DNA of 64,000 nucleotides from contig JBEDUK010000013.1 of NCBI GenBank assembly GCA_040414485.1, positions 10,570 to 74,569 of the forward strand, in the 5' to 3' direction. The notes below the pieces were generated by a model, which saw only the letters and a list, made by a program, of their open reading frames with translations, searched no databases and was not told the origin of the DNA. Positions 1,988-19,766 of this stretch are shown piece after piece. Source of the DNA: Actinomycetota bacterium. GTDB lineage: Bacteria; Actinomycetota; UBA4738. Position numbers and translations under genes: made by a program. Numbering within the stretch: the stretch's first letter is position 1; the number at the start of each line of letters is the position of its first letter.

Positions 1988-2542
1988 GCGTCCACCTCCC
2001 GTGTTCCCATGGGCCCGGCGCGAGAACGGACCCGGTTCCGCCGGCATCTGCCGGAGCGCCCCGGACCGTAGGTGTGGAGGGTGGCGCGCTCCGGGCGGCG
2101 AGGTGTCCGCGACGCGGAGCCCCGGCGAACCTGGCGTGCCGGTCGGGCATCGGGCCGGTGGCCGCGACGCGACCGCAGGGCGACCGACGAATGACGGTCG
2201 GCCGAACGCCGCGCGGGCCGTCGGCGGCCGCCGCAGGCGCTGACATACGCTTGCTGACACGCGCCGGCCGAACGGGATTCGTCGTGCGGGCCCCGAACCG
2301 TCGACGCGGCGACGCCGAACGGTCCGCAGTTGCTCGTTGTCCTGGCAGTCGCGCGTCACCGATCCGACAGCGCTCCGCCACCGTGGCTTGCGAGGGTTGC
2401 GCCCTGTGATCCGTCCTCACCGTGGCCGGCGGGCCCTTCTCCGGCGGCGCCGGTGCGCGCGTTCGCGCGTGCCCGGCCCGCGCTTCGCCGGCTCCGTGAC
2501 GGCGGGTACGGGCTGCGGCAGCGCCTCGCCGGGCATAGGGTT

Positions 2543-2583
2543 GTTCACCGACGGGCAAATGTCCATTCACCCAACAGTCACAG
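2543..2583. promoter_or_regulatory. putative PHO box: GTTCACC (2543), ATTCACC (2565), GTCACAG (2577) direct repeats at 11/22-bp phasing, ~90-120 nt upstream of pstC
   Basis: direct-repeat units read from sequence; matches PhoP-type PHO box architecture of Streptomyces/Corynebacterium. Confidence 0.45.
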
Positions 2584-2662
2584 ACCGCCGACATGCTCCG
2601 GTGGTCTTGACGTCAGGTCGCGGCCGGAACGGTCGCGGCCGGAGCGCTCGCAGCGGGGGAAG

Positions 2663-3682
2663 ATGAGCACGATCTCTGCCGACGTGGCGCAGCCACCGGA
2701 CGGCGACAGCACGCCGGATGCGCCGCGAACCATTACCCATACCCGGACGGGGGTCGATCGAGCGTTCCGGCGGCTGGCCACCGGGGCCGGCCTCGCGACG
2801 TTCGTCATCCTCTTCCTGATCGGGCTGTTCCTGCTGATCAAGTCGTGGCCGGCGTTCCACACCATGGGCCTGAAGTTCTTCACGACCTCACGATGGGACC
2901 CGGAGGGATCGCACGTCTTCGGCATCGCGGCGATCCTGTACTGGACGTTCGTCATCGCCATCGTCGCGCTGGCGATCGCGGTGCCGCTGTCGATCGCGAC
3001 GGCGCTGTTCATCACCGAGTACGCGCCGCGCCGGCTCCGCCGATGGATGATCTCGCTGGTCGACCTGTTGGCGGCGATCCCGAGCATCATCTACGGCATC
3101 TGGGGCCTGGCCTTCCTGGAGCCGCGGCTGGTTGGCGTCTCGCGATTCATCTCGAAGAACTTCGGGTTCATCCCGATCTTCAAGGTCCCCGGATCGAACC
3201 TGAACCCCGGGGCCTTCGCGGCGTCGGCATTCGTGGCCGGTGTGATCGTCTCGCTGATGGTCCTGCCGATCTGCGCGTCGATCGTGCGCGAGGTGTTCTC
3301 ACAGACCCCGCCGGGTGAGAAGGAAGCCGCCTTCGCGCTCGGCGGCAGCCGGTGGGGCATGATTCGGAGCGTCGTGCTGCCGTTCGGCCGCGGCGGCATC
3401 ATCGGGGGCGCGATGCTCGGGCTCGGCCGGGCGCTCGGCGAGACGATCGCCGTGGCGCTGGTGATCTCCCCGATCTTCACGATCTCGATCCACGTCCTGG
3501 CGACGGGCGCGAACGGCGTGGCGCCTCTCATCGCATTGCGGTTCGGCGAGGCGACCCAGAAGTTCGGCATCCCGGCGCTGATGGCTGCCGGACTGACGTT
3601 GTTCGTCGTGACCCTCCTCGTGAACTTCGCGGCCTCCGCGATCGTGGCCCGCTCGCGGTCCGGCAAGGGGGTCGAGATCTAG
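2663..3682 (+). CDS. pstC: phosphate ABC transporter permease PstC
   Basis: MSTISADV...FITEYAPRRLRRWMISLVDLLAAIPSIIYGIWGL; ATG 2663 with GGGGGAAG SD; ORF 2330..3682 trimmed. Confidence 0.9.
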   Translation: MSTISADVAQPPDGDSTPDAPRTITHTRTGVDRAFRRLATGAGLATFVILFLIGLFLLIKSWPAFHTMGLKFFTTSRWDPEGSHVFGIAAILYWTFVIAIVALAIAVPLSIATALFITEYAPRRLRRWMISLVDLLAAIPSIIYGIWGLAFLEPRLVGVSRFISKNFGFIPIFKVPGSNLNPGAFAASAFVAGVIVSLMVLPICASIVREVFSQTPPGEKEAAFALGGSRWGMIRSVVLPFGRGGIIGGAMLGLGRALGETIAVALVISPIFTISIHVLATGANGVAPLIALRFGEATQKFGIPALMAAGLTLFVVTLLVNFAASAIVARSRSGKGVEI

Positions 3683-4870
3683 ATGGCGGTCACCGCGCCC
3701 CCCAGGTCGCCGGGCTCTGCCGAGGCGCCGCCTCCGGGCGCGGGGGTCTTCGGCGGTCCGGGCGGCGACACGCCGATCCGGCCGCGTTCGTTCAACGCGG
3801 TCGACGCCTGGGTCCTCGTCGCGTCGATCGGCTCGTCGTTCGCGTTGATATGGGTGATCTTCCGGCTGATGCCGATCTCCGGCGCTGTCGGGTTCCTGTT
3901 CTGGTGGTTCGTGTCGTTCGCGTTCATCTACTGGCTGGCGATGCTGCAACTCGAGGGGCCGCTGGTGGCCAAGGACCGCCTGATGGCCGTCCTGATCGTC
4001 ACGGGCACGGGCATCCTGATCGTGCCGCTGGTCTCGATCATCGTGTTCGTTACGGCGAAGGGCATCGCGTACATCCGGCCGCACGTGTTCGTTCAGACGA
4101 ACAACCTCTGCGGCCAGCTGGACGGCCCCACGTGCGGAGGCATCGCGCATGCCATCGTCGGCACGCTCGAACAGGTCGCCATCGCCATGGTCATCTCGGT
4201 GCCGCTGGCGGTGCTCTGCGCGGTCTATCTGAACGAGATCGGCGGACCACTGCGACGGCCGGTGAGGCTCTTCGTCGACGCGATGAGCGGCGTGCCTTCG
4301 ATCGTGGCCGGCCTGTTCATCTACGCCGTGGTGGTCGTGAGCCTGGGCTGGGGGTTCTCGGGCTTCGCGGCCGCGCTCGCCCTGTCGATCCTGATGCTCC
4401 CGACGGTGACGCGGACCTCGGAGGAGGTGCTGCGCCTGGTGCCGGACGGCCTGCGCGAAGGCTCGCTCGCCCTCGGCGGCTACGAATGGCGCACGGTGTG
4501 GAATGTGGTGCTTCCCACCGCTCGCAGCGGCCTGATCACCGCGGTGATCCTGGGCGTCGCGCGTGCGGTCGGTGAGACGGCGCCGGTCCTGCTCACCGCG
4601 TTCGGCGCCCAGGTCATGAACGGCAACCCGTTCCACGGCCCGCAGGAGTCGCTGCCCCTGTTCATCTGGACCTATGTCCGGTTCAATCCCGGCGAAGCGC
4701 CGTACCTGCGCGCGTGGATGGCCTCCTTCGTACTGATCGTCCTGGTGCTCGGCCTGTTCACGCTCGCGCGCGTCCTGGGGACGCGCACGTCGATCGAACG
4801 CAGGCAGAAGCGAGCCGCGAAGCGCGACGCCAAACGCGCCGCGGCCGAACCCGGAGGAGCGAGAGCGTGA
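3683..4870 (+). CDS. pstA: phosphate ABC transporter permease PstA
   Basis: ATG directly after pstC TAG; EAA-loop permease signature ([25 protein letters not shown]...). Confidence 0.9.
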
Positions 4871-5688
4871 CGACGACCGAACAGGACCTGAGCGCCGGCA
4901 TGAACGGCGGCCCTTCCGGCAGCGGCGGCATGCGCGCCGAACGGGTTTCGGCGTGGTTCGGCACGCACAAGGTGCTCGAGCAGGTGACCCTGGACATGCC
5001 GGCCGGGAAGGTGACGGCGCTGATCGGGCCTTCGGGGTGCGGCAAGTCCACCTTCATCAGGATCCTCAATCGCATGCACGAGCTGGTCCCCGGTGCGCAG
5101 CTCTCGGGCCAGGTGTTCCTCGACGGGACCGACATCTACTCCCCAGAGGTCCGCCCCATCGAGACGCGGCGGAAGGTGGGCATGGTCTTCCAGAAGCCCA
5201 ACCCGTTTCCGGCGATGAGCGTCTACGACAACGTCCTGTCGGGCCTGAAGCTCTCCGGGATGAAGCCGGCGAACCCTGATGCCCTGGTGGAGGACTCCCT
5301 CACCCGGGCCGGCCTGTGGCGGGAGGTCCGCAACCGCCTGGAGGATCCGGGCGGAGGCCTCTCCGGAGGCCAGCAGCAGCGCCTGTGCATCGCCAGGTCC
5401 CTCGCCGTGTCGCCGGAGGTCCTGCTCATGGACGAGCCCTGCTCGGCGCTGGACCCCTCCTCCACGAGGCGCATCGAGGAGACCATCGGCGAGATCGTCC
5501 ACGAGGTGACCGTGGTGATCGTGACCCACAACATGCAGCAGGCCCAGCGCATCTCCGACCTCTGCGCGTTCTTCAACGTTGACGAAGGCTCGCCGGGTGG
5601 GATCGTGGAGATCGGTCCCACCACGAAGATCTTCAACGACCCCGACGATCCCCGGACCGCGGACTACGTCCACGGCAGGTTCGGATAG
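4867..5688 (+). CDS. pstB: phosphate ABC transporter ATP-binding protein PstB
   Basis: GTG 4867 overlaps pstA stop (GTGA); Walker [24 protein letters not shown]-terminal ADYVHGRFG. Confidence 0.9.
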
Positions 5689-5698
5689 GAAGGTCTCC

Positions 5699-7348
5699 AT
5701 GCTTCGAGGGAGAACGAACCGAACGACGCGAACCTCGCCAGTGCGCCACATCCTCCGCGCCGCCGCGGCGATGTGGTTCGCAGCGACATCGGCGCTCCTC
5801 ATGCTCCTGCTGATCCCGGCGTTGCCGGCATCCGCGTCGGGCCCGCCGGTGACCGGTGCCGGTTCGACCTGGGTCCAGATCGCGCTGGACCAGTGGCGCG
5901 CCGACTACGCGCACTTCGGCTACCAGATCAACTACTCGGGCGTGGGCTCGAGCGCGGGCCGGAACTTCTACATCATCAATCAGGTCGATTTCGCCGCGAC
6001 CGAGATCCCGTTCCAGCCCGACGAGGTCGCCCAGCTCCAAGCGGAGCACAAGACCTACCAGTACCTGCCCGACGTCGCCGGCGGAACCTCGCTGATGTAC
6101 AACCTGCACGACACCGCGGGCCGGCGCATCAGGAGCCTGAACATCGATTCGAACGCGGCCGCCCTGATCTTCACCGGCAAGATCAGCAGCTGGCAGGATC
6201 CGGCGATCACGCGTCTGAACCCGGGGCTCCACATCAGGGACACCCACATCACGCCGGTGATCCGGTCCGACGGCTCCGGCACCTCGGCGCAGTTCTCGCT
6301 GTACCTGCAGAACCAGCAGCAGAGCCTGTGGAACCAGTTCGTCCAGCAGTGGGGGTGCCAGGCACCCTGTTCGGTGTGGCCGAGCTTCAACGGCTCGGTC
6401 GGCGCCAATGGGAGCGACGGCGTGGCGAACTTCATCGCCAACGACACGCTCGGCCAGGGCGCGATCGGCTACGTCGAAGCGGGGTACGCCTACGGGCGGA
6501 ACTTCCCCGTGGGCAATCTGCACAATCGGAGCGGGCACTACGTCCAGCCGTCGTCGAACAACGTCGCGACGGCCCTCACGCACGCGACGCTGAACCACGA
6601 CCTGACGCAGAACCTGGTGGGCGTCTACAACGCGCCCGAGGCGAACTCGTATCCCATGTCCTCGTACTCGTACATGATCACGCCGACCGCCGAAGGGTTC
6701 GGATTCACGGCCGAGAAGGGCGCGGTCCTTTCGGGCTGGATCGTCTACATCGCGTGCAAGGGCCAGCAGAGCGCTGCCCCCCTCGGGTATTCGCCGCTGC
6801 CGAAGAACCTGATCCAGGCGGACTTCGACGCCGTGAACCGCATACCAGGGCATGTGAAGCCGCCGCCGATCGACTATCAGCACTGTCCGAATCCGAATCT
6901 GCCCCAGGGAAACGGCGGCAACAACGGGGGGAACAACGGGGGGAACAACGGCGGCAACGACGGGAACACTGGCAGCACCGGTGGCAGCACCGCCAGTACG
7001 GATCCCAGCTCGACGACGCCCGGCGCGACCGATCCCAGCCCGACGGCGGCACAGACCACGCCGCCGCCCGCGATCGGAGGGGTGGGCGGCAACCAGCCGC
7101 CATCCGGCGTCCAGGTCACCACGATGACCCAGGAGCAACAGCAGGCGGCGTACGCGGCTGCCCTGAAGAGCGCCTCCTACGCGCAGCCCGAGCCCATCCT
7201 TCCGCTGGTCGTGACCGCGCTCGGCGTGCTCGTGCTCGTATTCGCGCCGGTGTTGCTGCAGGTCAGGCGGCAGGCGCCGGCGCCGCGGTCGGCAACCGAC
7301 CGGCTGCGCCGGGATGAAGGGCGAGAGACGACGGACCATGGCGGATAA
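5699..7348 (+). CDS. PstS-like phosphate-binding protein with long low-complexity C-terminal extension (NGGNNGG repeats, S/T/P-rich) and C-terminal TM anchor
   Basis: ATG 5699 after GGAAGG SD; signal peptide ...ALPASA; IFTGKISSWQDPAITRLNPGLHIRDTHITPVIRSDGSGTS matches E. coli PstS core; hydrophobic LPLVVTALGVLVLVFAPVLL + RRQ tail. Confidence 0.8.
   Translation: MLRGRTNRTTRTSPVRHILRAAAAMWFAATSALLMLLLIPALPASASGPPVTGAGSTWVQIALDQWRADYAHFGYQINYSGVGSSAGRNFYIINQVDFAATEIPFQPDEVAQLQAEHKTYQYLPDVAGGTSLMYNLHDTAGRRIRSLNIDSNAAALIFTGKISSWQDPAITRLNPGLHIRDTHITPVIRSDGSGTSAQFSLYLQNQQQSLWNQFVQQWGCQAPCSVWPSFNGSVGANGSDGVANFIANDTLGQGAIGYVEAGYAYGRNFPVGNLHNRSGHYVQPSSNNVATALTHATLNHDLTQNLVGVYNAPEANSYPMSSYSYMITPTAEGFGFTAEKGAVLSGWIVYIACKGQQSAAPLGYSPLPKNLIQADFDAVNRIPGHVKPPPIDYQHCPNPNLPQGNGGNNGGNNGGNNGGNDGNTGSTGGSTASTDPSSTTPGATDPSPTAAQTTPPPAIGGVGGNQPPSGVQVTTMTQEQQQAAYAAALKSASYAQPEPILPLVVTALGVLVLVFAPVLLQVRRQAPAPRSATDRLRRDEGRETTDHGG
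6895..6965 (+). repeat. in-frame tandem nucleotide repeat encoding (NGGN)n inside PstS-like 1
   Basis: aacaacggggggaacaacggggggaacaacggcggcaac. Confidence 0.6.
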
Positions 7349-9473
7349 GCGGCGTGCTCCGGCAAAGCATCGCGCGCGCCGCCCGGCCCCGCGGCGCGGC
7401 CCCGCGCGGGTCGCCGCGTCGCTCCTGATCCCCATCGCCATCGGGATCCTCGGCGTCGTCGCCTCTCCGCTCGAGCTCGCGGCGCATGCCGACGGCCCGC
7501 AGATCAAGCTCGATCCGTCGAAAGACGTGACGTACGGGCAGTACATCCATGTGAGCCTGTCCGGGTACGCGCCCGGCATCGGCGTCGCGTTCCGCCAGTG
7601 CGTGAACGGCACACAGACGCCGGATCTGGACACGCAGTGCTCGCCGATCTACCCGGTGAGCACGGTCACCGACTCGTCCGGCAACGGTGACATCTATCTG
7701 AACGTGCTGCCGGACCCCGAGAACGCCCAGACCGGCCAGGGCAACCTCGTGTACGCGTCGAGCGCCGACACGTCGAAGGCCTGCGGTGACGGCAACCCGT
7801 GTTTTCCATGCGACCAGAACACCCCCTGCCAGATGGCCGCGTTCACTGATCCGCACGATGTCGGCACCGGCGTGTTCGCGAAGATGGAGTACGGTCCCTC
7901 GCCCACCGCATGCCCGGCGCCCGGACAGGATCAGGCGTTCGCCCACGGCTCCGGTTCGGCCTCCGCGTACCGAGCCCTCTACACGTGGGAAGGCATCGTG
8001 TGCCAGAACCCGAAGGACCTCTCGGTCCAGGTGGATCTCACGAACTCCTACGACGGGGTGCAGGCTTGGACGAACGGCATATCCGACTTCGCCGTCACGG
8101 GGCAGCCGCTGGATGCGGACCAGAAGGCGGCGCTGCACGCCGCGGGGAGGACGTGGGCGTACGCGCCGATCAGCGGCTCGGGTGTGGTCCTCGCCTACGA
8201 CATCTTCGACAAGCGCGGTCCGCAGATCACGAACCTGATCCTCACGCCGGACCTGATCGCGCAGCAGTTCACCAGCCAGATCCCGAACTGGAACTTCGTC
8301 GACGCGATCAACAAGCTGAACCCGGGGATCCAGTGGCCCTCCCGAATCGTCTCCTACGTCCGGGCCGAGCACTCCGCGGAGACGATGGCGTTCACCACGT
8401 GGCTCACCAATGTGGCGAGTGGCTCGCTCGGGGGCCTCAACCCGCCGTGGCCGGGCGCCACGAACGTGTTCCCGCAGTACGGGTTCGACGTCGGGGTTCA
8501 GGGGGCGAACAAGCTCGCGCTGGCCATCCGGAACCCGAACACCGACTTCAGCACCTACGGGAACATCGGGTTCATCGACTCGAGCATGGCGGCCTTCTAC
8601 GGCTTGCCGACGGTGAAGATCGAGCTCGCCCCGGGGGTCGACGTGCCGGCGACACCCGACACGATCCTCAAGGCGATCAACGACGCGCTCCCGCCGGATT
8701 CCAGCGGCGCCGTGAACTTCGCCTATGACGACGCCGATCACGGCGCCTGGCCGATCCCGCTGATCTCCTACATCCCGGCACCGACGAACAAGATCGACCA
8801 GTCGGTGGGAGCCGTGCTCCGGTCGTTCATCACCTTCGCGGTGGGTGACGGACAGGATGCGCTCCCGGGGTTCCTGAACTACGCGAAGTTGCCGGCGGTG
8901 CTCTCGGCCGAGGCGGTGGCGGCCGCGAATCGGATCCCGCATGTGCCGCATACGACCCCGCCGCACCACACGACCACGCCGCCCACGCATTACACGACGC
9001 CGCCCACGTACTACACGACGCCGCCCACGTACTACACGACCACGACGCCGCCGACGTTCACGACGGGCCCACCGCCGACGTTCCCGACCGGCTCGCCAAC
9101 CGCGACGACCACGTTGCCCTGCCCGGGGGCCACCCCGAGCGCGACCGGTTCCCCGGCCGCATCCGGATCGGTCCTGCCGACGACGCAGTCGCCCACGCCG
9201 TCGGTGTCGGCATCGGGTTCGTTCGGGCCCTCCGAATCCCCCTCGCCCACCGAGAGCCCCTGCCCGAGCGGACCGCCCGCGGGTGCCGTCGCGAGCGGTG
9301 GTCCGCTCTATCCTTCGGCGGCTCGGTTCGTCCTGCCCTCGATCGCCCTCCTCGGACTGGTCGGCCTCACGGCGGGGCCCATCCTTCAGCGGATGAGCGC
9401 ACACCGTCGGACAGGGCCCGCCGCGGCCGCTGCGACCGCCGCGGTCACTCCGGAACCGCCCGCGCCGGCGTGA
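7338..9473 (+). CDS. secreted two-part protein: Cys-containing N-terminal domain + PstS/PBP-like domain + TTPPTYY repeat linker + C-terminal TM anchor
   Basis: signal peptide ending AHA; AHGSGSASAYRALYTW and DLIAQQFTSQIPNWNFVDAINKLNPGIQWPSRIVSYVRAEHSAETMAFTTWL resemble PstS; 21-nt tandem repeats 8950-9060; hydrophobic C-terminus + HRR tail; start 7338 (alt 7314). Confidence 0.6.
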   Translation: MADKRRAPAKHRARRPAPRRGPARVAASLLIPIAIGILGVVASPLELAAHADGPQIKLDPSKDVTYGQYIHVSLSGYAPGIGVAFRQCVNGTQTPDLDTQCSPIYPVSTVTDSSGNGDIYLNVLPDPENAQTGQGNLVYASSADTSKACGDGNPCFPCDQNTPCQMAAFTDPHDVGTGVFAKMEYGPSPTACPAPGQDQAFAHGSGSASAYRALYTWEGIVCQNPKDLSVQVDLTNSYDGVQAWTNGISDFAVTGQPLDADQKAALHAAGRTWAYAPISGSGVVLAYDIFDKRGPQITNLILTPDLIAQQFTSQIPNWNFVDAINKLNPGIQWPSRIVSYVRAEHSAETMAFTTWLTNVASGSLGGLNPPWPGATNVFPQYGFDVGVQGANKLALAIRNPNTDFSTYGNIGFIDSSMAAFYGLPTVKIELAPGVDVPATPDTILKAINDALPPDSSGAVNFAYDDADHGAWPIPLISYIPAPTNKIDQSVGAVLRSFITFAVGDGQDALPGFLNYAKLPAVLSAEAVAAANRIPHVPHTTPPHHTTTPPTHYTTPPTYYTTPPTYYTTTTPPTFTTGPPPTFPTGSPTATTTLPCPGATPSATGSPAASGSVLPTTQSPTPSVSASGSFGPSESPSPTESPCPSGPPAGAVASGGPLYPSAARFVLPSIALLGLVGLTAGPILQRMSAHRRTGPAAAAATAAVTPEPPAPA
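8950..9060 (+). repeat. in-frame 21-nt tandem repeat (TACACGACGCCGCCCACGTAC-like) encoding TTPPTYY units
   Basis: read directly from sequence. Confidence 0.6.
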
Positions 9474-11023
9474 GCGGATCGGTGATGCTCGAGGACCGTC
9501 CCGCCGGCGACGGCGAGGCGAAGGTCGCCCAGGCGCGAGAGGGGCTCGCCGCCCTCGATGCGCACCTTGCCACGATCGACGGGCGGCCCGTCGGCCCCGA
9601 CGAGCGCAACGAGATGATCGGCCTCGTCCTGTCGGTCGACGAGACCCTCCGTGAGCTCGAGATGTGGAGCGGCAATGGGTCGGGCGAGCCGACGGCGCCG
9701 CCGCGGCGGCGGGGTCTGCACTTCCGGCGGCACAAGGTCCGCACGGATACCGGCGGTCCCGTGAACGGCGAAGATTCGAACGCCACCGTGGTCCTCGACC
9801 GCGTCGAGCCGGGCACGAAGATCACGGCCGAGACCGCGCCTGCCGAGCTGATCCCGGTTCAGCCGATGCCCGTCGCACCGTCGCCGCCGCCGCCGACGGC
9901 GACGCCGCCGACGGCAGATCAGCCATCGCCGGTCGAACCGACGCGGGTCGAGGGACCCGGCGCCGCGCCGGATGAGCGCGTCTCGATCGACGAGGAGTAC
10001 CGGCAGGACCTTGCGGCCCGCGTCAGGGCGCTCCGCGCCGAACTCGACGAGCGCGCGGGCCGGGTGCTCGTCCTCACCACCGATGAGCGGCAACGCCCGC
10101 GCCGGCGGCTGGCCGGGTTGTTCGGCTCCATCGGTCAGCCGGCGACTGCAGAGACCGCCGCCACGACGGCGACCCTGCCCGCCGCGCTCAGGAGCCGCCG
10201 ATCCGTCGAGCGCTCCGTGGGAAAGGTCCTCACCGCCGCGGGAGTCATCGCCGTGCTGTTCCTGCTGTTCGAGTTCGGCCTGACCGGCTCCCTCGAGGCG
10301 CGGGACCAACGGGCGCTGCTGCTCCAGTTCCAGGACGCCATCGTCACGACGAACCTCGACCTGCCGAACAAGACCATCCCGTCGGGTACGGCGGTCGCGC
10401 TCATGAACATCCCGTCCATCCACGTGAGTCAGGTGGTCGTCGAGGGCACGACCAATCGCCTGCTGAAGGCGGGACCGGGCCACCTCGCCGCCGCCCCGCT
10501 GCCGGGCGAGTTCGGCAACGCGATCATCCTGGGGCACCGGACGAAGTACGGAGCGCCGTTCCGCAGCCTGAACCTGCTCCATACGGGCGACCTGATCAAC
10601 GTCACCACCGGGCAGGGGTTGTTCGTCTATTCGGTAAACCATGTTTACCACTTGAAGTCCGGCGACCCGGATGTGTTCGCCGGCTCGACCGATTCGCGCC
10701 TGACACTCGTCAGCGCTGACCCGCCCCAGGGGGCGAGCGGCCGCATCGTCGCCGTCGCACTCCTCCGAGGGAGCCCGGTCGCCGTCGACACGCGCCCGCC
10801 GGTGCCGGTGGGCCGGGACGAACTGGGGCTTTCGGCCGATCCGGTCGGCGCCGTGTTCGGCCTGATCTGGCTTCAGGTGTTCATCGTGGCGTACCTGATC
10901 ACCCGTCGTATCCGTCGGACGTGGAACCCCACCGTGACGTGGTTGCTCGCCGCGCCGATCCTGCTGGCCCTGCTGCTGCTCGTGTTCATCAACGTCGACC
11001 TGCTGCTGCCGGGCACGCTGTAA
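9470..11023 (+). CDS. class E sortase homolog with active-site Cys replaced by Ala (TLVSA instead of TLxTC); long Pro-rich N-terminal cytoplasmic extension and C-terminal TM helices
   Basis: VVEGTTNRLLKAGPGHLAAAPLPGEFGNAIILGHRTKYGAPFRSL...GDLINV...YSVNHV...SRLTLVSADP; GTG 9470 overlaps upstream stop (GTGA); catalytic His (GHRT) and Arg retained. Confidence 0.6.
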   Translation: MSGSVMLEDRPAGDGEAKVAQAREGLAALDAHLATIDGRPVGPDERNEMIGLVLSVDETLRELEMWSGNGSGEPTAPPRRRGLHFRRHKVRTDTGGPVNGEDSNATVVLDRVEPGTKITAETAPAELIPVQPMPVAPSPPPPTATPPTADQPSPVEPTRVEGPGAAPDERVSIDEEYRQDLAARVRALRAELDERAGRVLVLTTDERQRPRRRLAGLFGSIGQPATAETAATTATLPAALRSRRSVERSVGKVLTAAGVIAVLFLLFEFGLTGSLEARDQRALLLQFQDAIVTTNLDLPNKTIPSGTAVALMNIPSIHVSQVVVEGTTNRLLKAGPGHLAAAPLPGEFGNAIILGHRTKYGAPFRSLNLLHTGDLINVTTGQGLFVYSVNHVYHLKSGDPDVFAGSTDSRLTLVSADPPQGASGRIVAVALLRGSPVAVDTRPPVPVGRDELGLSADPVGAVFGLIWLQVFIVAYLITRRIRRTWNPTVTWLLAAPILLALLLLVFINVDLLLPGTL

Positions 11024-11035: not shown

Positions 11036-11485
11036 ATGCCGAGCCGCGGACGATCGGTCGCTCCGGCTGCCTTGCTCGCCATCGCCGTGCTGGCGGCGGC
11101 GTGCACCTCGGGCGCGAGCGCGAACACACCGACCTCGCCGCCGGTACGGCCGACGCCGTCCCGGTCGGCAGGCTCGCCCGACCCGAACCGGGAGCGTGAC
11201 CATCCCGATCCGAACTTCGACTTTGGCTTCACGATCCGCATCACCGACCAGGGCTTCCACCCGCAGTGGCTGGTGTCGTTGTGCTGCAAGCCGGTGACGT
11301 GGATCAACGACACGAACGCGCCGGTGAAGGTGGTCTTCGACCATCAATCGGTCCGATCCGGCCAGATCGCGCCCGGGGGCACGTTCGTGTGGAAGCCGAA
11401 GAACGTCCAGAGCGTGACCTACCACGACGCGGCCGATCCGAGCCGCCACGGGATCATCCAGGTCAATCAGTCGTTCGAGTCCTGA
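11036..11485 (+). CDS. putative lipoprotein, unknown function
   Basis: lipobox LAAAC after n/h-region; high GC3; 149 aa. Confidence 0.5.
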   Translation: MPSRGRSVAPAALLAIAVLAAACTSGASANTPTSPPVRPTPSRSAGSPDPNRERDHPDPNFDFGFTIRITDQGFHPQWLVSLCCKPVTWINDTNAPVKVVFDHQSVRSGQIAPGGTFVWKPKNVQSVTYHDAADPSRHGIIQVNQSFES

Positions 11486-11496: not shown

Positions 11497-11537
11497 CCTT
11501 GCTCCGGGCGGGATGGGGCGTTTACTTCGGAGCAAGG
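11497..11537. terminator. possible stem-loop (10-bp stem CCTTGCTCCG / CGGAGCAAGG, 21-nt loop) after lipoprotein gene
   Basis: inverted repeat read from sequence; no U-tract. Confidence 0.25.
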
Positions 11538-12474: not shown

Positions 12475-13668
12475 ATGATCAAGAAGACGAAGAGTCGCCG
12501 GCTGGGGCTCATCGGTGCGGTGATCGTGGGCAGCAGCGCCCTGTTCATCTCCGCGGCGATGCCGGCAGGGGCGACGGGAGGTGGCGGACCGGTCGCGGCG
12601 AGCGTGCTCGGCAGCGGCTCGGACACCACGCAGTTCATGATGAACGCGATCGATAACCTGTACCTGTTCAGCCCCGGGTGTTCACCCATCCCGACGCAGG
12701 GACAGAACGCGTGGCTGGACTTCAGCTGCGAGTCCCCTGACCCGCCGAACACGATCCTCTCTGAGAACTACAAGCACGACCAGGTGCACGAGGCCTACTT
12801 CCTGGGGTCGAGCAACGGGATCAAGCAGCTGTGCTCGCAGGGACAGTCGGGCGTGGCCCGCATCGACTTCGCCCGTTCGTCGCGCGGTCCCGGGAGCAGC
12901 GACTGCACCGGGCTGAAGTTCGTTGCCTACGCGCGTGACGGCATCTCCTGGGAGGCCTTCAACATCAAGGGCTCCGGTATCAAGAACATGAACAACCAGA
13001 ACGGAACCTGCGCGGGGTCCGGCGGGGACACGCAGTTCTGTCTGACCCAGAGTCAGCTGAACGGCATCTTCGTGGCCTGCACGATCACGAACTGGAGCCA
13101 GGTCGGCGGCAACAACCTCAAGTTCGCCATCTACACGCCCCAGGCCGGGTCCGGGACACGCTCCACCTGGGACGGGTTCGTCGGCGGCGACTCATCGCAT
13201 TGCATCCCGGCCGGCCAGCAGAGCACCCACATCGTCCCGGAGAACGACAACACGGCCATCTTCAACAACGGCGACCAGAAGAAGGCCATCTTCCCGTTCT
13301 CTTTCGGTGTGTGGACGCAGCGCGTCCACGGGCAGCACAAGGCGATCCTCGGCGCCATCGACAACGTCCCGGTGAACAAGGACACGATCGCCGATGGGTC
13401 GTTCCCGTTCGGCCGCTTCCTCTACAACGTCTACTGCACCGCGTCGTGCTCGAGCGGTGCCTCGGAGGACGAGGCCGTCACCTACGTGGGTGAGGAAGGC
13501 TGGATCTGCAAGCTGGACGCGGACCACGCCAACGACCCGGCCACCGGCGCGAACTACCGGACCGAGATCGCGAACGCCATCTCGGCGAGCGGGTTCGTCC
13601 CCGTGCCGAAGGGTGTCATCGGCGGCGGTGACACGAACCAGGACTACTGCAGGTTGTTCAACCACTAG
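12475..13668 (+). CDS. secreted Cys-rich PstS/PBP-superfamily-like protein (third PstS-like paralog)
   Basis: signal peptide MIKKTKSRRLGLIGAVIVGSSALFISAAMPAGA; GSSNGIKQL...IDFARSSRG and AGSGTRSTWDGFVGG resemble PstS GSGAGIRQF/VDFGASDAP/DGSGTSF motifs. Confidence 0.55.
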   Translation: MIKKTKSRRLGLIGAVIVGSSALFISAAMPAGATGGGGPVAASVLGSGSDTTQFMMNAIDNLYLFSPGCSPIPTQGQNAWLDFSCESPDPPNTILSENYKHDQVHEAYFLGSSNGIKQLCSQGQSGVARIDFARSSRGPGSSDCTGLKFVAYARDGISWEAFNIKGSGIKNMNNQNGTCAGSGGDTQFCLTQSQLNGIFVACTITNWSQVGGNNLKFAIYTPQAGSGTRSTWDGFVGGDSSHCIPAGQQSTHIVPENDNTAIFNNGDQKKAIFPFSFGVWTQRVHGQHKAILGAIDNVPVNKDTIADGSFPFGRFLYNVYCTASCSSGASEDEAVTYVGEEGWICKLDADHANDPATGANYRTEIANAISASGFVPVPKGVIGGGDTNQDYCRLFNH

Positions 13669-13836: not shown

Positions 13837-14082
13837 CGGGGAGCCGGACGATCGCCGGGGTGGCGAGGGGCGAGGAACATCCGGCCGACAGGAATCATGC
13901 AGAGCCCGGATGACCACGTGCGGTCCCGCACGCGACCGGGAAATGAACGGTCATCACGGCAAACGGTCCACGGAGGCGGGCGTTCTTCCTGCTCGTGCGC
14001 CGCGCGTGGCCGCGCACGATTCACCGGACGGTCGACCTGCGTTCATCGCTCGGCCATCCGGCCGCTGCACCGTGCCGCGTGC

Positions 14083-14850
14083 ATGGAAGGGCAGGTGCAA
14101 CCCGTCGGGATCGGAGCCTCTCGGGCCGCCGGGCCCCGCGTCGTGGATCGCCTCGAGGCGAACCTGACCCGCCGCGCACCCGGCAGCGACGTACCCGATG
14201 CGGCGGTGCTGGCGGAGGAGCTCGAGACGACGCCCGGCGCCGTTCGCCGGGCCTTGACCGAACTGGAGCGGCGCTTCGTCGTTCGCCGGAACCAGACCCG
14301 GCACCTGGTGGTCTCCTCGCGGATCGACTACCGCATCGGCTCCGGGATGCTTCCCGGACTGACCGAGGCGGTCGCCGCATCGGGCGTCACCGTCCGCTCG
14401 GAGACCGAGCGGGTCCGCCTCCAGCGCGTACCGCCCCGCGTCCGGCTCGAGCTCGACATCGGACGGATGTCGCGTGTCCACGTCCTCTCCCGGCGCCGTT
14501 TCGTCGACGACGAACCGGTGGCGTGCTCCGTCTCCTACGTGGTCGCGGACCTGACGCCCGGCCTGCCGGACCGACTCGGCACCGAGGGATCGCTGCACGC
14601 CACGCTCCGCGAGGCGTTCGGGCTTCATCCCGTGCCCGCGTGGGTTCGGGCCGAGATGGACGTGCCGCCGGTGGACATCCCTCGCCGGCTGAAACTGGGA
14701 GGCCGGCCTGTGCTGGTGTCGATCAGGTCACGAACGGACTGCGCCAGACTGGGCCGCCCGCTCGAGGTGACCGCCTCCTGGCTGCGCCCCGACGTCTTCC
14801 GCGTGGTCCTGGAGGTGAACGGTGCGACGGGTGTGGGAGGCGCCGCGTGA
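14083..14850 (+). CDS. GntR-family transcriptional regulator with UTRA effector domain (HutC/PhnF subfamily)
   Basis: ATG 14083; HTH ...AAVLAEELETTPGAVRRALTELERRFVVRR; C-terminal UTRA-like domain. Confidence 0.75.
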   Translation: MEGQVQPVGIGASRAAGPRVVDRLEANLTRRAPGSDVPDAAVLAEELETTPGAVRRALTELERRFVVRRNQTRHLVVSSRIDYRIGSGMLPGLTEAVAASGVTVRSETERVRLQRVPPRVRLELDIGRMSRVHVLSRRRFVDDEPVACSVSYVVADLTPGLPDRLGTEGSLHATLREAFGLHPVPAWVRAEMDVPPVDIPRRLKLGGRPVLVSIRSRTDCARLGRPLEVTASWLRPDVFRVVLEVNGATGVGGAA

Positions 14851-14862
14851 GCGTCGGGCAGG

Positions 14863-15327
14863 TCAGGGCGCGGGCCAGTAGCGCGCGCACGTGAATCGTC
14901 CGCCGTCGGCCTCGAGTTCCCACACCGAACCCTTCGCGAACCCGACGTCTCCCTCGACCCGCATCCCGCGCAGCACCAGATGCGGGATGAGCGCTTCGAT
15001 CACGTCGCCGTGACTGCACGCCGCCGTCGGCTGGTCGGCCAGCCGAACGAGGAGCGCCTCCACGCGCTCCACCGGTGTCCCCTCCGCGAGGTCCGGTTCG
15101 TCGCTGACATCCTGGCGTCGCGCGGCGGCGAGGGGCTCGAGTGTCTGCACACACCGAACGAACGGGCTCGAGGCGAGCCTGCCGATGATGAGGCTGTCGA
15201 AGCTCTCCGCGAGGGACTTCGCCTGCCGACGGCCCTTCGCCGAGAGCGGGCGAAGGTCGTCCGCGCCGCTCCACGACTTCCGGTTCCCGGCGTCGGCGTG
15301 ACGGATGAGGTACAGCGTCACCGTCAC
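14863..15327 (-). CDS. histidine phosphatase family protein (SixA-like phosphohistidine phosphatase)
   Basis: LYLIRHADAG (RHG-type catalytic motif); ATG overlaps upstream NUDIX stop (ATGA). Confidence 0.7.
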   Translation of the reverse strand: MTVTLYLIRHADAGNRKSWSGADDLRPLSAKGRRQAKSLAESFDSLIIGRLASSPFVRCVQTLEPLAAARRQDVSDEPDLAEGTPVERVEALLVRLADQPTAACSHGDVIEALIPHLVLRGMRVEGDVGFAKGSVWELEADGGRFTCARYWPAP

Positions 15328-15788
15328 CTGCGGTCGTCCGGCTCGTCCGGCTCGGACGGCTCGAACGGCTCGAACGTCGCAACGAGCTCGCGATCATGCG
15401 GGTAGGTCAGCCGGGCGAGCGCCTGCTGCACGGGGAGCCAGGCGATCGCGTCCACCTCGTCGCCGGGTTCGAACGACCCCTCCCCCGATCCCGGTCCGGC
15501 GCGCATCTCGAAGTAATTGACGGCCTTCGGCGTGCCGGACGCGTCACGGTAGGAGATCGTTCCGAGCGGCCGCACGATCTGGCAGCGCACTCCGGTCTCC
15601 TCCCACACCTCGCGCAGCGCCGCGGTGACCTCGTCCTCCCCGGGCACGAGCTTGCCCTTGGGCAGGCTCCAGTCGTCGTACCTGGGGCGGTGCACGAGCA
15701 AGATCTCGACCGCGCCGTCGTCCCCGCGCCGCCTGACGATCCCGCCCGCGGCCCGAACGGTCCCTGCCCCGGTTCCAGTTCCGATCAC
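15324..15788 (-). CDS. NUDIX hydrolase
   Basis: Nudix box GKLVPGEDEVTAALREVWEETGV; GTG 15788 overlaps CHAD gene stop (GTGA). Confidence 0.8.
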   Translation of the reverse strand: MIGTGTGAGTVRAAGGIVRRRGDDGAVEILLVHRPRYDDWSLPKGKLVPGEDEVTAALREVWEETGVRCQIVRPLGTISYRDASGTPKAVNYFEMRAGPGSGEGSFEPGDEVDAIAWLPVQQALARLTYPHDRELVATFEPFEPSEPDEPDDRR

Positions 15789-17428
15789 GTCCACGCCTTC
15801 GGCCGCTTCGCCTTGACGCGCTTCCACGCCTCGCGCCACGTGTCGCGGGTCTGCGCCGCCGACCACCGCTCCAGACCGGCCAGTTCGCCCGCGACGAATG
15901 CCGTTCGGGCCGAACGCGCCCGTGCCGCCGCCTCCCGGAGCCAGCGGGCGGCGACGACGGCGTCGTTGTGCCGGCCCAGCACATCCTGGAGCCCTGCCGC
16001 CGCCTCGCCGAGATCCCGCGCCGGCTTGCCCAGCAGGGGCGAGACGGCCTCGGTCGCGTACCGAAGGCGCTTCGCCCTGATGCGGACAGCGTGAAGCCCT
16101 TCGTCGGACGGAGGATCGTCAAGCTGCTTGACGGCCTTGCGCAGCCGGCGCCATGGCTTGCGGAGCAGATCGGGGAGCGTGGCGCCCGCGGGCAGGTCGG
16201 CCTCGAGCAGCAGCGCCGGCTCGTTGCCCGCGTTCACCAGCCGGTCGAGGACCTGCGCGTACCGCGGTTCGCGCATGGCCTCCAGGAGATCGGCCCGCGC
16301 GATGCGGCGCTCTTCGGACATGCGATCGAGCAGCCGTGCCCCTGCCTCGCGGTCCGGCCCCTCGAGCGCCTCGACCCGGTCGGTGAGGAGCTCCATCAAC
16401 ACGTCCGCGTCGCGCGCGGCGCCGAGCTTGTCGGCGAGCCAGTGGAGGTCGTCGACCAGATGAGCGGCCCACGTCGGATCGAGGAGCGGCGCGAAGGTCC
16501 TGAGGTCCGAACGCAGCCGCCGGGTGGCGACCCGGGCCTGGTGGACGCCCTCCGGATGGGCGTCAAGGCGGACGACGGCGTCGTGCTTGAGCAGCCTGAT
16601 CACCGACGCGGCGATGGCGTTCCGGACGACCGCGCCCGCCGTCGCGCCCGCATGCAGTTCGGCCACGGCCAGCTCGGCCGGGCCCGTCGCCCGCGGACCC
16701 ACCGCCCGGATGTACTTGGTGGTCGAATCGGGTTCGCCCGCGCCGGCGTCGCGCAGGAGCGAGACGATCCGCGCGAGGAGCTCGTCCGTCGCTCCTTCGC
16801 CCGCCTCCACCTCGAGCTCGCGGAAGCGCGCGGCGAGCCGGCGGCCGTCCATGACCGACACCTCGTCGTCGACGATCTCGGCCACGCGGCTGCCCGGCGC
16901 CTCGTCGGACGCCACCGCCGGCCCGACCGCGTCCGCGTCGCCCTCGCCGTCCATCACGGCGTCCGGGACCCGCACGACCACCGAACGCCGCAGTGTCCGC
17001 AGGCGGGTGACGGGCACGACGTCGGCCGTTCGCACGTACGCGCGCAGCAGGTCGATCGCTCCCGCGGGAGGTTCCTTCGGGCCGCCGTCGAACGTGACCT
17101 CTTCGCGGATCAGCGCGTCGCCCTCCGTTTCGGGCGGAAGCTTGACCGTCCAGCCTTCGGTGTCGCGATACCGGAGGCTGCATCCCCATCGCGCAAGCCG
17201 AAGGTCCGGTGTGTCGAAGTAGGTCGTCCGCTGCGTCCTCGGCTGGGCGACCTCCACCTGGAGCCCGTCCAGCGCCTTTGCGAGGTCCGGCAAGCGGAAG
17301 GACGGCGCCGCGGCGAGCTTGATCTCGCGCTCGGGGGCGTGGCGTACGGGCTCGTGCCGCGCGGTGGCGGCGGAGGCCAGCTCCAAGCCGCCCCGCCCGC
17401 CTGGTTCCTGAGGCGCGGTGTCAGCCAC
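15785..17428 (-). CDS. CYTH (triphosphate tunnel) + CHAD domain protein
   Basis: N-terminal EREIKL...CYTH fold region, C-terminal CHAD helices (RVATRRLRSDLR, RIRAKRLRYATE); start uncertain (17428 GTG or 17473). Confidence 0.7.
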   Translation of the reverse strand: MADTAPQEPGGRGGLELASAATARHEPVRHAPEREIKLAAAPSFRLPDLAKALDGLQVEVAQPRTQRTTYFDTPDLRLARWGCSLRYRDTEGWTVKLPPETEGDALIREEVTFDGGPKEPPAGAIDLLRAYVRTADVVPVTRLRTLRRSVVVRVPDAVMDGEGDADAVGPAVASDEAPGSRVAEIVDDEVSVMDGRRLAARFRELEVEAGEGATDELLARIVSLLRDAGAGEPDSTTKYIRAVGPRATGPAELAVAELHAGATAGAVVRNAIAASVIRLLKHDAVVRLDAHPEGVHQARVATRRLRSDLRTFAPLLDPTWAAHLVDDLHWLADKLGAARDADVLMELLTDRVEALEGPDREAGARLLDRMSEERRIARADLLEAMREPRYAQVLDRLVNAGNEPALLLEADLPAGATLPDLLRKPWRRLRKAVKQLDDPPSDEGLHAVRIRAKRLRYATEAVSPLLGKPARDLGEAAAGLQDVLGRHNDAVVAARWLREAAARARSARTAFVAGELAGLERWSAAQTRDTWREAWKRVKAKRPKAWT

Positions 17429-19547
17429 GTCGGACGACCCGCCGGTCCTTCGCGCTGGCGCGGGCGAGGGCACGCTCCTGGAGCCGCTGCTGCGCGTCGA
17501 TGCCCGCGCGCGTGGGGACCTTCGTGTAGCAGCCGTCCGGCCCCAGGGTCCACGCCAGCATGTCGTCGGACATGCAGATGTCCAGGATCTCCTGAAGCCG
17601 TGCTTTCAACACGGGATCCTTGACCTCGACGGTCGCCTCCACGCGCCGGTCGAGGTTCCGGGGCATGAGGTCCGCGGAGCCGATGAAGTACCGCGCCTGC
17701 TTTTCCTTCGCGCCGAACCGGAAGATCCGCGAATGCTCGAGGTAGCGCCCGACGATCGAGCGCACGCTGATGTTCTCCGACAGGCCCGGCTCGCCCGGGC
17801 GGAGGCAGCAGATCCCGCGCACGATGAGGTCGATCTTCGTGCCCGCCTGCGAGGCCTCGTAGAGCGCGTCGATCATCTCGGTGTCCACCAGGCTGTTCAT
17901 CTTCAGGATGATGCGGCCCTCGGGGGCGGCGGCCTGTTCGGCGATCAGCTCGATCAGACGCGAACGAAGGCTCATGGGCGCGACCAGCAGGTTCCGGTAG
18001 CGCGTCTGCCGGCTGTACCCCGTGAGGTAGTTGAACAGGTCGGCCACGTCGGCGGTGAGGTCCGGGTCGGCCGTGAGCAGGCCGACGTCCTCGTAGGCCT
18101 TCGCCGTGTTGGGGTTGTAGTTGCCGGTGCCAACGTGGCAGTAGCGCCGCACCCCGGATGCCTCCCCTCGGACGGCCAGGGAGATCTTCGCGTGGGTCTT
18201 CAGGCCGACCACGCCGTACAGCACGTGGACGCCCGCCCGCTCCATCAGCTTCGCCCACCCGATGTTCGCCTCCTCGTCGCCCCGCGCCTGGAGCTCGACC
18301 AGCGCCACGACCTGCTTGCCACCCTCGGCGGCGCGGATCAGCGAGCGGACGATCGGGCTCTCGCGGTCGGAGGTCCGGTACAGGGTCTGCTTCAGGGCGA
18401 GCACCGCCGGGTCGCGCGCGGCCTGTTCGATGAACTCCTCGACGGTGGCGTCGAAGGACTCATACGGGAGGTGCACGAGGACGTCGCCGCGGCGAAGCAC
18501 GTCGAACACGTCGGTGGGCAATCCTTCCTCAGACGGGGCGAGCCGTCGCGGCGTGATCCCGGCCCACGGCTCGTCCTTCAGCTCCGGCCGGTCGAGCGCG
18601 TAGAGCGTCATCAGGCCCGAAGCATCGAGCAGGCTGTCGACCACGTAGACGTCCTCGTCATCCAGCTCCAGTTCCTGGATCAGCCGATCGAGCACGTCCC
18701 TGGGCATGGACGCGCCGACCTCGAGCCGCACGACCTCAGGCGACCGTTGGCGGAGCCGGACGAAGGATTCGATCGCGGACAGGAGATCCTCGCCCTCGTC
18801 GATCTCGATATCGAGGTCCGCGTCGCGCGTGACCCGGAACAGATGGTGGGCGACGATGTCCATGCCGGGGAACAGGGCCGTCACGTTCGCGCCGATGAGC
18901 TCCTCCAGCGGGATGAAACGGACCCCGTCGGGCAGCGCCATGAACCGGGGAAGCAGCGGAGGCACCTTCACGCGGGCGAACCGCCGCACCTGCGTCACCT
19001 TGTCCCGCACGACCACGGCGAGGTTCAGCGAAAGGTGCGAGATGTACGGGAACGGGTGCGCCGGGTCGACCGAGAGCGGCGTCAGCACGGGGAACACGCG
19101 GTCGCGGAAGGTGCCCTCGAGGTACTGGCGGTCCTCCTTCGTCAGGTCGTCCCAACGGACGATCGAGATCTTCGACGCGTCCATCGCCGGGATCAGCTGC
19201 TCGGCGATCACGCGTGACTGGCGGTCGACCAGCGCCTGAACCCGCGCGCGGATCGCCGCGAGTTGCTCGCCGGCGGTCATCCCGTCGGGCGTGGTGGACG
19301 AGAAGCCCGCCTCGACCTGCTCGCTCAGACCCGCCACGCGGATCTGGAAGAACTCGTCCAGGTTCGAACTGAAGATCGCCACGAAGCGCGCGCGTTCGAG
19401 CAGCGGGCGGTGCTCGTCCTCAGCCAGCGCGAGGACGCGTTCGTTGAAGTCGAGCCAGGAGAGCTCGCGATTGATGTACCGGCCCGCCACAGGCACGCGC
19501 GACGGCCTCTCGCGAGCCGTGTGGAGCCGTTCGTTCGTGTCGACCAT
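17421..19547 (-). CDS. ppk1: polyphosphate kinase 1
   Basis: 708 aa; RYINRELSWLDFNERVL...FIGSADLMPRNLDRRVE hallmark PPK1 motifs. Confidence 0.95.
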   Translation of the reverse strand: MVDTNERLHTARERPSRVPVAGRYINRELSWLDFNERVLALAEDEHRPLLERARFVAIFSSNLDEFFQIRVAGLSEQVEAGFSSTTPDGMTAGEQLAAIRARVQALVDRQSRVIAEQLIPAMDASKISIVRWDDLTKEDRQYLEGTFRDRVFPVLTPLSVDPAHPFPYISHLSLNLAVVVRDKVTQVRRFARVKVPPLLPRFMALPDGVRFIPLEELIGANVTALFPGMDIVAHHLFRVTRDADLDIEIDEGEDLLSAIESFVRLRQRSPEVVRLEVGASMPRDVLDRLIQELELDDEDVYVVDSLLDASGLMTLYALDRPELKDEPWAGITPRRLAPSEEGLPTDVFDVLRRGDVLVHLPYESFDATVEEFIEQAARDPAVLALKQTLYRTSDRESPIVRSLIRAAEGGKQVVALVELQARGDEEANIGWAKLMERAGVHVLYGVVGLKTHAKISLAVRGEASGVRRYCHVGTGNYNPNTAKAYEDVGLLTADPDLTADVADLFNYLTGYSRQTRYRNLLVAPMSLRSRLIELIAEQAAAPEGRIILKMNSLVDTEMIDALYEASQAGTKIDLIVRGICCLRPGEPGLSENISVRSIVGRYLEHSRIFRFGAKEKQARYFIGSADLMPRNLDRRVEATVEVKDPVLKARLQEILDICMSDDMLAWTLGPDGCYTKVPTRAGIDAQQRLQERALARASAKDRRVVRRG

Positions 19548-19718: not shown

Positions 19719-19766
19719 TCCCACGCATAGCGTGCCCGTGGCCGCTCGACGACGAAAGGACGGCTC

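Follow-up and report, generated by a model that had tools for sequence, protein, structure and literature searches.

A sortase-fold protein without the nucleophilic cysteine is encoded in a variant pst operon of Actinomycetota

Results

A sortase homologue in a variant pst operon

Sortases are cysteine transpeptidases. In a 64,000-nucleotide stretch of contig JBEDUK010000013.1 from an Actinomycetota bacterium (assembly GCA_040414485.1), referred to here as the window, a plus-strand gene at positions 9470..11023 encodes a 517-aa sortase homologue that lacks the catalytic cysteine, termed the pseudo-sortase, as established with Pfam, NCBIfam, phmmer, AlphaFold2 (AF2) and Foldseek. It is the sixth gene of a close-packed run with the order pstC-pstA-pstB-PstS1-PstS2-like-pseudo-sortase-149-aa lipoprotein, and its GTG start codon overlaps the TGA stop of the preceding open reading frame (ORF; 7314..9473) in a GTGA tetranucleotide at 9470-9473, the translational coupling that the original prediction for this locus had described.

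The sequence and the predicted structure both place the product among sortases. Sortase PF04203 was the only Pfam domain detected (aa 312-431; E = 2.4e-23, 82.7 bits against a cut-off of 26.6), and the general family TIGR01076 sortase_fam scored above its cut-off (45.8 bits; 39.35 required), while the top NCBIfam match, class_E_sortase NF033747, reached 88.5 bits, far under its cut-off of 160. An AF2 model of aa 240-517, with a predicted local distance difference test score (pLDDT) of 82.7 and a predicted template-modelling score (pTM) of 0.78, retrieved sortases only when searched with Foldseek against the PDB, the matches including 4d70 (target-normalised TM 0.86, root-mean-square deviation (r.m.s.d.) 2.2 Å) and Streptomyces avermitilis SrtE 5go6 (target-normalised TM 0.79, r.m.s.d. 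1.7 Å). The model and these matches reveal the eight-stranded sortase β-barrel, so the sortase fold, for which a structural check had been suggested, is upheld.

The extracytoplasmic sortase-fold domain spans aa 278-435 (10301..10774, plus strand), as delimited by Pfam, Foldseek and clade comparison, and holds GPGH at 335-338, Leu339 at the position of the class E Tyr, His356, Ala416 and Arg425. In phmmer alignments, LTLVSADP of the pseudo-sortase falls on LTLVTCEP of solved sortases, which puts Ala416 (codon GCT, 10715..10717, plus strand; read out from the codon and from alignments to solved sortases) in the column of the nucleophilic Cys, where 4d70 and 5go6 both carry Cys, and the TLxTC nucleophile is absent. 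His356, within GHRT, and Arg425 are retained and align with the catalytic residues of solved sortases. The class E alignment, the retained His and Arg and the Ala at the nucleophile position thus all stand as the original prediction had read them. The entire 517-aa protein contains zero Cys. The other two reading frames around the Cys-codon site carry stop codons and homology continues on both sides; because both alternative frames contain stops, there is no frameshift at Ala416, again in agreement with the earlier reading. The sortase fold of the product and the loss of its nucleophile are well supported by these comparisons, and the protein is very probably non-catalytic.

Membrane topology and the C-terminal hairpin

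A hydropathy scan located three transmembrane (TM) segments in the pseudo-sortase, at aa 248-277, 454-479 and 485-517. The first, TM1 (10211..10300, plus strand), which forms a long helix in the AF2 model, had been overlooked in the original prediction, which had recognised the C-terminal TM helices. The positive-inside rule predicts an extracellular location for the sortase-like domain and the extreme C-terminus, and a cytoplasmic one for the 247-aa N-terminal region and the RRIRR loop.

The predicted cytoplasmic N-terminal region (aa 1-247; 9470..10210, plus strand) is conserved only in the closest homologues. The original description of a Pro-rich N-terminus of about 280 aa has to be corrected on both counts, as the region before TM1 comprises 247 aa and only aa ~120-170 are Pro-rich (31% Pro, compared with 11% overall). 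The remainder is charged or helical, with blocks conserved among close homologues, and the region has neither a Pfam match nor a recognisable signalling domain.

The C-terminal TM2-TM3 hairpin (aa 454-517; 10829..11020, plus strand), delimited by the TM scan and ending in a conserved LLPGTL, is more constrained than any other part of the protein, and its residues P496, L513 and P514 are invariant across the Cys-less clade. The ratio of nonsynonymous to synonymous substitution (dN/dS), calculated against the homologue at related locus L081, was lowest in this hairpin (0.05), intermediate in the sortase-like domain (0.16) and highest in the N-terminal region (0.33). The last six codons (LLPGTL, 11003-11020) give an LPxT-like C-terminus after TM3, on the predicted outer face, that resembles a sorting motif; C-termini read LLP[GSA]T[LM] or LLPNL[LIV] in Cys-less proteins and LLPAS[FY] in active sisters. 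Docking of the LLPGTL terminus in the old active site was considered and found unsupported, the final residues of the model having a pLDDT below 50.

A widespread Cys-less family under purifying selection

All 12 of the closest database homologues lack the nucleophilic Cys, the more distant among them lacking the His as well, and the five closest, from independent metagenomes, all read LTLVSADP. Searching 1.84 billion cluster representatives with a profile yielded 1658 matches at E <= 1e-30, from which the 150 best representatives were aligned with the earlier homologues and the window protein, 162 sequences in all. The nucleophilic Cys is absent in 159 of the 162, its column holding Ser in 101, Ala in 39, Gly in 7, Thr in 6 and Val in 3, and the domain is entirely free of Cys in 156 of the 159 Cys-less relatives. 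The His column holds Arg in 113, His in 34 and Lys in 9, and the catalytic Arg column keeps Arg in 106. Because the ranking profile was built from Cys-less sequences, the 98% Cys-less share of the 150 representatives is not an unbiased proportion and sets a minimum for the size of the family, in which the Cys loss is shared by at least about 150 clusters at 50% identity.

Substitute nucleophiles, which the original prediction had proposed to look for, were not found in either of two forms: a Cys elsewhere is ruled out, the protein having none, and a conserved Ser/His dyad is ruled out at the family level, His occurring together with Ser or Thr in only 19 of the 162 sequences.

Purifying selection on the family is well supported by the substitution ratios and alignments. 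In operational terms, the pseudo-sortase is a pseudoenzyme, one that keeps the enzyme fold, has lost a key catalytic residue, evolves under purifying selection and is widely conserved.

Loss of the cysteine coincides with pst linkage

To place the gene among its relatives, one genome per species was scanned with an eight-sequence alignment, which returned 188 relatives; the best 80 loci were kept, the window proteins were searched against them by tblastn, the catalytic columns were read out, and 79 loci entered the count of Cys state against pst linkage. ORF starts in the related loci are approximate, and many loci are metagenome-assembled genomes (MAGs), some with frameshifts. All scan loci came from Actinomycetota, namely Acidimicrobiia MAGs, Embleya, Dactylosporangium, Actinophytocola, Nanopelagicales, Promicromonosporaceae and Frankiaceae.

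Among the 79 loci, 42 Cys-less loci were pst-linked and 4 were not, whereas none of the Cys-containing sister loci was pst-linked and 33 were not (Fisher p = 3.5e-18). Of the four Cys-less loci without pst, two sit on truncated contigs and two belong to a separate small clade. In a simple neighbour-joining tree, the Cys-less pst-linked proteins formed one clade, save for the long branch L019, that was sister to the canonical proteins. The embedding in a pst operon that had been noted for the window is thus a property of the clade, and the PstC, PstA and PstB profiles match in the window itself. Independent gene calls on metagenome contigs gave the window order at L081, the order pstC-pstA-PBP-841 aa-pseudo-sortase-Big_3_5-pstB at L082 and the order PBP-NCS/PBP-pseudo-sortase at L083, where PBP denotes a PstS-like binding protein and NCS a neocarzinostatin-like domain. 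In Embleya and at L082, the pseudo-sortase gene is enclosed by the operon, with the pstS-like genes on one side and pstB on the other. This distribution makes it likely that the pseudo-sortase is dedicated to the variant Pst system.

The separate small Cys-less clade comprises two loci of the same MAG (L045:9112-10512 and L054:9536-10879), is of GHY type, reads AAHRVG...LTLTSAH and has no adjacent pst genes; it may represent an independent loss of the nucleophile.

Tail-anchored binding proteins precede the pseudo-sortase

The two genes directly upstream of the pseudo-sortase encode PstS-like proteins that end in a TM segment and a basic tail and carry no LPXTG or LAXTG, in line with the original prediction; neither signal sequence contains a lipobox. 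PstS1 (5699..7348, plus strand), a tail-anchored phosphate-binding protein that scored 203.1 bits with TIGR00975 against a cut-off of 205, consists of a signal peptide, the binding domain, a low-complexity linker of ~130 aa and a C-terminal TM segment at aa 495-524 (nt 7181-7270) followed by RRQ..., and its phosphate-binding motifs GAGST, GS, DF and RSDGSGT align with those of the canonical PstS encoded in the same window. The PstS2-like protein (7314..9473, plus strand; PF12849 E = 1.9e-9) is laid out as a signal or anchor sequence, a neocarzinostatin-like Ig domain, a diverged PBP domain, a Pro/Thr-rich linker, a TM segment at aa ~668-691 (nt ~9315-9386) and a basic tail. Its N-terminal domain (aa ~49-131) resembles neocarzinostatin and the enediyne chromoproteins, of Ig-like fold (NF040680, 3.9e-8), and its PstS score is 82 bits, with the phosphate-binding motifs not kept. 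L001, L019 and L083 also combine NCS and PBP domains in this way.

This arrangement holds across the clade. Thirty-six of 39 genes immediately upstream of Cys-less sortases end in a TM segment and basic tail without LAXTG, and a 4-nt ATGA or GTGA overlap joins the upstream stop to the pseudo-sortase start in 33 of 37 loci. Among PstS1 orthologues, 32 of 35 carry an extension of 110-190 aa whose terminal TM segment leads into an RRRR-type tail, a Pro lying 5-8 residues ahead of that tail. Cys loss, neighbours and 4-nt overlap recur together in dozens of independent genomes, so the association is not due to chance, and a specific tie of the pseudo-sortase to tail-anchored PstS-like proteins devoid of a cleavable motif is well supported by the comparison.

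The Cys-containing sisters keep GHRTT...LTLTTC(N/T)PR...R. A gene for a SpaA_4 pilin-like protein lies directly ahead of the sister sortase in 9 of the 33 sister loci (L023, L036, L040, L059, L066, L070, L073, L074 and L080); these partners are 700-850 aa long, end in LA[SA]TG-TDVR-TM-RRRR, the classic form of a class E sorting signal, and lie ~2-2.5 kb upstream of locus position 10001. The sister sortase, with its unusual C-terminal two-TM hairpin, and the SpaA_4 pilin-like protein look like a dedicated pair in Acidimicrobiia. As a substrate gene is followed by a sortase gene in both clades, the layout is common to the Cys-less and the Cys-containing lineages, and the sequences suggest that, in the Cys-less clade, the enzyme has lost its nucleophile and the partner its cleavage motif.

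Residues kept in both clades include QVVVEG, GPGH, PG..G, G.PF, the LTL strand, V.A.L, W467, R484 and the C-terminal LLP. Invariant in the sisters and relaxed in the Cys-less clade are the Tyr after GPGH (Leu339), N350, A354, R357, T358, the β6/β7 loop at 394-402, C416, P418 and R419, and newly fixed in the Cys-less clade are V389, R410, G434 and P496. All 33 canonical sisters (100%) have Tyr in the Leu339 column, as does 5go6 in its GHY. In class E sortases, this Tyr in the β3/β4 loop selects Ala at P3 of LAXTG, and the Tyr and the β6/β7 loop contact the sorting signal (PMC5148588). As read from the alignments, the residue pattern is that of a pseudoenzyme, with the scaffold and the membrane hairpin kept, and the active site and old specificity pocket not.

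Several Cys-less proteins carry additional domains. A PASTA domain is inserted between TM1 and the sortase-like domain in one Cys-less sub-clade (P0140, P0116, P0137, P0075, P0155 and L019), and the PASTA-bearing L019 (9554-10669) is pst-linked and follows a tail-anchored protein with NCS-like and PBP_like_2 domains. In P0027, an N-terminal GT2 glycosyltransferase domain is fused to the Cys-less sortase domain. A 980-aa ORF that joins NCS-like, PBP_like_2 and Cys-less Sortase domains (P0025) was not used as Rosetta-stone evidence: it may be a natural fusion of the two adjacent genes or a frameshift artefact, because its junction lacks a convincing TM segment and a single sequence is known.

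Neighbouring genes in the window

The transporter genes of the variant operon, all on the plus strand, are pstC (2330..3682; TIGR02138 269 bits, cut-off 196; start uncertain, the PstC match beginning at aa 144 of the ORF), pstA (3683..4870; TIGR00974 260 bits, cut-off 193; supported by synteny in related loci) and a pstB-like ATPase gene (4714..5688; TIGR00972 329 bits, just under the cut-off of 343; Pfam ABC_tran; start uncertain). The position of pstC upstream of the Cys-less sortase is also conserved in related loci. Twelve nucleotides after the pseudo-sortase stop begins the gene for the 149-aa lipoprotein (11036..11485, plus strand; lipobox LAAAC), which has no Pfam or NCBIfam match; in L001-L006, L019, L021 and L024 a homologue occupies the position next downstream of the Cys-less sortase gene. 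A hairpin resembling a terminator lies beyond the lipoprotein gene at 11500-11520. A third PstS-family protein (12475..13668, plus strand; TIGR02136 58 bits, PF12849) has a signal sequence and no C-terminal anchor, and its gene often adjoins the module in related loci.

A second, canonical system, pstS-pstC-pstA-pstB-phoU, occupies 19767-24327, and its PstS is a lipoprotein (lipobox LVAAGC) without a tail, which provides an internal control for the tail-anchored PstS-like proteins. Genes of phosphate metabolism are dense across 13897-24327, between the two systems and including the second, in an arrangement shared with L081: a GntR/UTRA regulator (13897-14850) and, on the minus strand, a SixA-like histidine phosphatase (14863-15327), a NUDIX protein (15324-15866), a CYTH-CHAD protein (15785-17473) and polyphosphate kinase 1, ppk1 (17421-19547). 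No canonical sortase was found elsewhere in the 64-kb window, and no convincing sorting signal (motif, TM segment and basic tail) was found at the end of any window ORF with high GC content at third codon positions. Upstream of pstC, long overlapping ORFs (269-2071 on the plus strand, 192-1448 on the minus strand) have no Pfam or NCBIfam match; the matching region of L081 encodes a sensor kinase of the HisKA type on the minus strand together with a 290-aa product assigned to no family.

Discussion

A proposed role in retaining binding proteins

Considering these observations, we tentatively propose that the pseudo-sortase is a non-catalytic descendant of a class E-type sortase that serves as a dedicated membrane accessory protein of the variant Pst uptake system, a proposal that we place just below an even chance. 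It may act by binding the tails of the binding proteins, which, judged from the sequences, we hold to be conceivable and somewhat short of probable. A more general formulation, and a more doubtful one, is that the sortase fold was repurposed as a non-covalent receptor of sorting-signal-like anchors, making it a hitherto unrecognised accessory subunit of an ABC importer that organises tail-anchored binding proteins around PstCA and in some lineages also contacts peptidoglycan through PASTA; the locus would then preserve a fossil sortase/substrate pair in which nucleophile and motif were lost together.

In the proposed mechanism, the binding proteins of the variant Pst system would not be lipoproteins, and would instead be exported with a cleavable signal peptide and held in the membrane by the C-terminal TM segment and basic tail, a tail architecture that would be that of a sortase substrate from which the LAXTG cleavage motif is missing. 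The ancestral order of substrate gene and sortase gene would have been kept, with the nucleophile and the cleavage motif both lost. The pseudo-sortase would capture the C-terminal anchor of the co-translated PstS2-like protein, and probably that of PstS1 too, mainly through the conserved TM2-TM3 hairpin and the membrane-proximal sortase-fold domain; in the active sisters, which have the hairpin in common, it presumably aids capture of the substrate anchor. The binding proteins would thereby be held uncleaved in a complex near PstCA, instead of being transferred to peptidoglycan. We infer both the physical binding of the tails and its consequence for phosphate uptake.

Several observations weigh against this proposal. 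The class E Tyr position (Leu339), the β6/β7 loop at 394-402, and P418 and R419 are relaxed in the Cys-less clade, and since some of these positions touch the sorting signal in class E sortases, the old groove is unlikely to recognise a tail motif in a conserved way. The tails of the binding proteins are alike only loosely, the PstS2-like proteins having R-hhh-P at the TM start in one group and PstS1 having its Pro upstream of RRRR, and they could be generic stop-transfer anchors. The PASTA sub-clade points to a peptidoglycan or lipid II ligand, instead of or besides the tails. In the 62% of listed relatives that carry Ser in place of the Cys, residual chemistry is possible. The original suggestion that a sorting system had switched to non-covalent anchoring fits the contrast with the Cys-containing sisters, several of which follow LA[SA]TG pilin-like proteins; the putative scaffold also suggested there would be unlikely to bind a conserved motif in the old groove.

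Alternative explanations

The principal rival holds that the sortase fold kept its lipid II or peptidoglycan stem-peptide ligand and, non-catalytically, places the Pst complex at the wall or threads the long-tethered binding proteins there. PASTA domains bind muropeptides in penicillin-binding proteins and Ser/Thr kinases, so their presence in a Cys-less sub-clade that includes the pst-linked L019 speaks for such a contact, as do the relaxation of the sorting-signal contact residues around a conserved core and the binding-protein linkers of 110-190 aa, long enough to span the wall. However, PASTA occurs in a minority only and is absent from the window protein, and a wall contact leaves unexplained both the near-universal translational coupling to one tail-anchored gene and the position of the TM hairpin as the most constrained part. 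We regard this explanation as unlikely, and as compatible with the binding of tails, the two not being exclusive.

Less likely than a wall contact are a regulatory role and Ser-based residual chemistry. As a trans-membrane regulator, which we consider improbable, the protein would sense the state of the tail-anchored binding proteins outside the cell and relay it through its cytoplasmic N-terminus to phosphate regulation or other partners. The N-terminus is long and lineage-specific, with 247 aa here, helical blocks in close homologues and the GT2 fusion of P0027; the neighbourhood is rich in phoU, ppk1, CYTH-CHAD, SixA-like phosphatase and GntR/UTRA regulator genes; and the N-terminal cytoplasmic segment of SrtE1 is required in vivo (PMC5148588). 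Yet many family members are almost without an N-terminal extension, at about 300 aa in total, and in the window protein this region, free of any recognisable signalling domain, is the least constrained by dN/dS.

Still more improbable is a surviving enzyme with a Ser or Thr nucleophile (Ser415 here, Ser at the Cys column elsewhere), which would shed or process the tail-anchored binding proteins by hydrolysis or transpeptidation. Such chemistry could draw on the Ser that fills the Cys column in 101 of the 162 sequences, on the Thr or Ser in the preceding column in 159 of them, and on the His356 and Arg425 retained in the window protein. However, the nucleophile column is Ala in the window protein and in 38 other listed sequences and Gly or Val in others, the His has become Arg or Lys in 122 of 162 and rarely accompanies a Ser or Thr, the Thr or Ser at position -1 was inherited from the canonical TLTTC and is not new, and a conserved cleavage motif is missing from the partner proteins.

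A sequencing error at the Cys codon or a decaying housekeeping-sortase pseudogene has a negligible probability and is, for practical purposes, refuted by the comparative sequence data, namely the identical LTLVSADP in five independent metagenomes, the loss shared by so many clusters, an intact 517-codon ORF with stops in the alternative frames and a domain dN/dS of 0.16, and synteny and gene overlap conserved across Actinomycetota orders.

Significance and comparison with known systems

Neither Pfam nor NCBIfam holds a model specific to the Cys-less clade, and the searchable literature yielded nothing on pseudo-, inactive or Cys-less sortase families, nor on sortases in pst operons. Some sources label the Cys-less proteins 'sortase A' or 'LPXTG-site transpeptidase', an annotation that overstates what these sequences can do. 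As far as we could find, a large, phylum-wide, nucleophile-free clade under selection would be the first sortase-derived pseudoenzyme family. It points to an undescribed form of binding-protein retention in monoderm actinobacteria, in which sorting-signal-like C-terminal tail anchors and a sortase-like partner, not a lipid, would hold the proteins. Soil Acidimicrobiia and related groups commonly carry the system, which makes it relevant to their scavenging of phosphate.

In canonical PstSCAB systems the binding protein is lipid-anchored, PstS of Streptomyces lividans being a lipoprotein (PMC2605767). Like it, PstS1 keeps the PstS fold signature, the phosphate motifs and the company of pstC, pstA and pstB; by contrast, the variant operon has the order pstCAB-pstS, its PstS1 has no lipobox and ends in a ~130-aa linker, a TM segment and a basic tail, and the operon adds a second, diverged binding protein and the pseudo-sortase. 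ABC importers with membrane-tethered or fused substrate-binding domains are exemplified by OpuA and GlnPQ of Firmicutes and by importers with the TM-anchored substrate-binding proteins of archaea. They share with the variant system a protein rather than a lipid anchor and more than one binding domain per transporter; to our knowledge, an accessory subunit of the kind proposed here has not been described for them, and the variant system differs in using a separate, sorting-signal-shaped C-terminal helix as the anchor and in co-encoding a sortase-derived protein.

With the class E sortases (SrtE1 and SrtE2 of Streptomyces coelicolor, 5cuw; SrtE of S. avermitilis, 5go5/5go6; SrtE of Thermobifida fusca), the pseudo-sortase shares the fold, a cytoplasmic N-terminal segment that leads into a TM anchor, and a set of sequence features: the GxGH...PG..GN...GHR block, the LTL strand and an Arg farther downstream. 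It differs from them in having Ala416 for Cys, Leu339 for Tyr, an unconserved β6/β7 loop, two extra C-terminal TM helices, a pst operon setting and neighbours without LAXTG. Of the features that define an active class E sortase, it lacks the nucleophilic Cys, the specificity Tyr, a score above the family cut-off and a LAXTG substrate. The pseudo-sortase also resembles the Cys-containing, Acidimicrobiia-type sisters of the same subfamily, which have the same three-TM architecture, W467, R484 and LLP C-terminus, and whose gene likewise lies directly behind that of a protein ending in a TM segment and basic tail. Unlike the pseudo-sortase, these sisters keep the Cys and the Tyr, follow a SpaA_4 partner with LA[SA]TG in nine loci and are not pst-linked in any of the 33, and their loci, with an active sortase and a LAXTG substrate, offer a ready comparison for the passage from an enzyme/substrate pair to a non-catalytic partnership.

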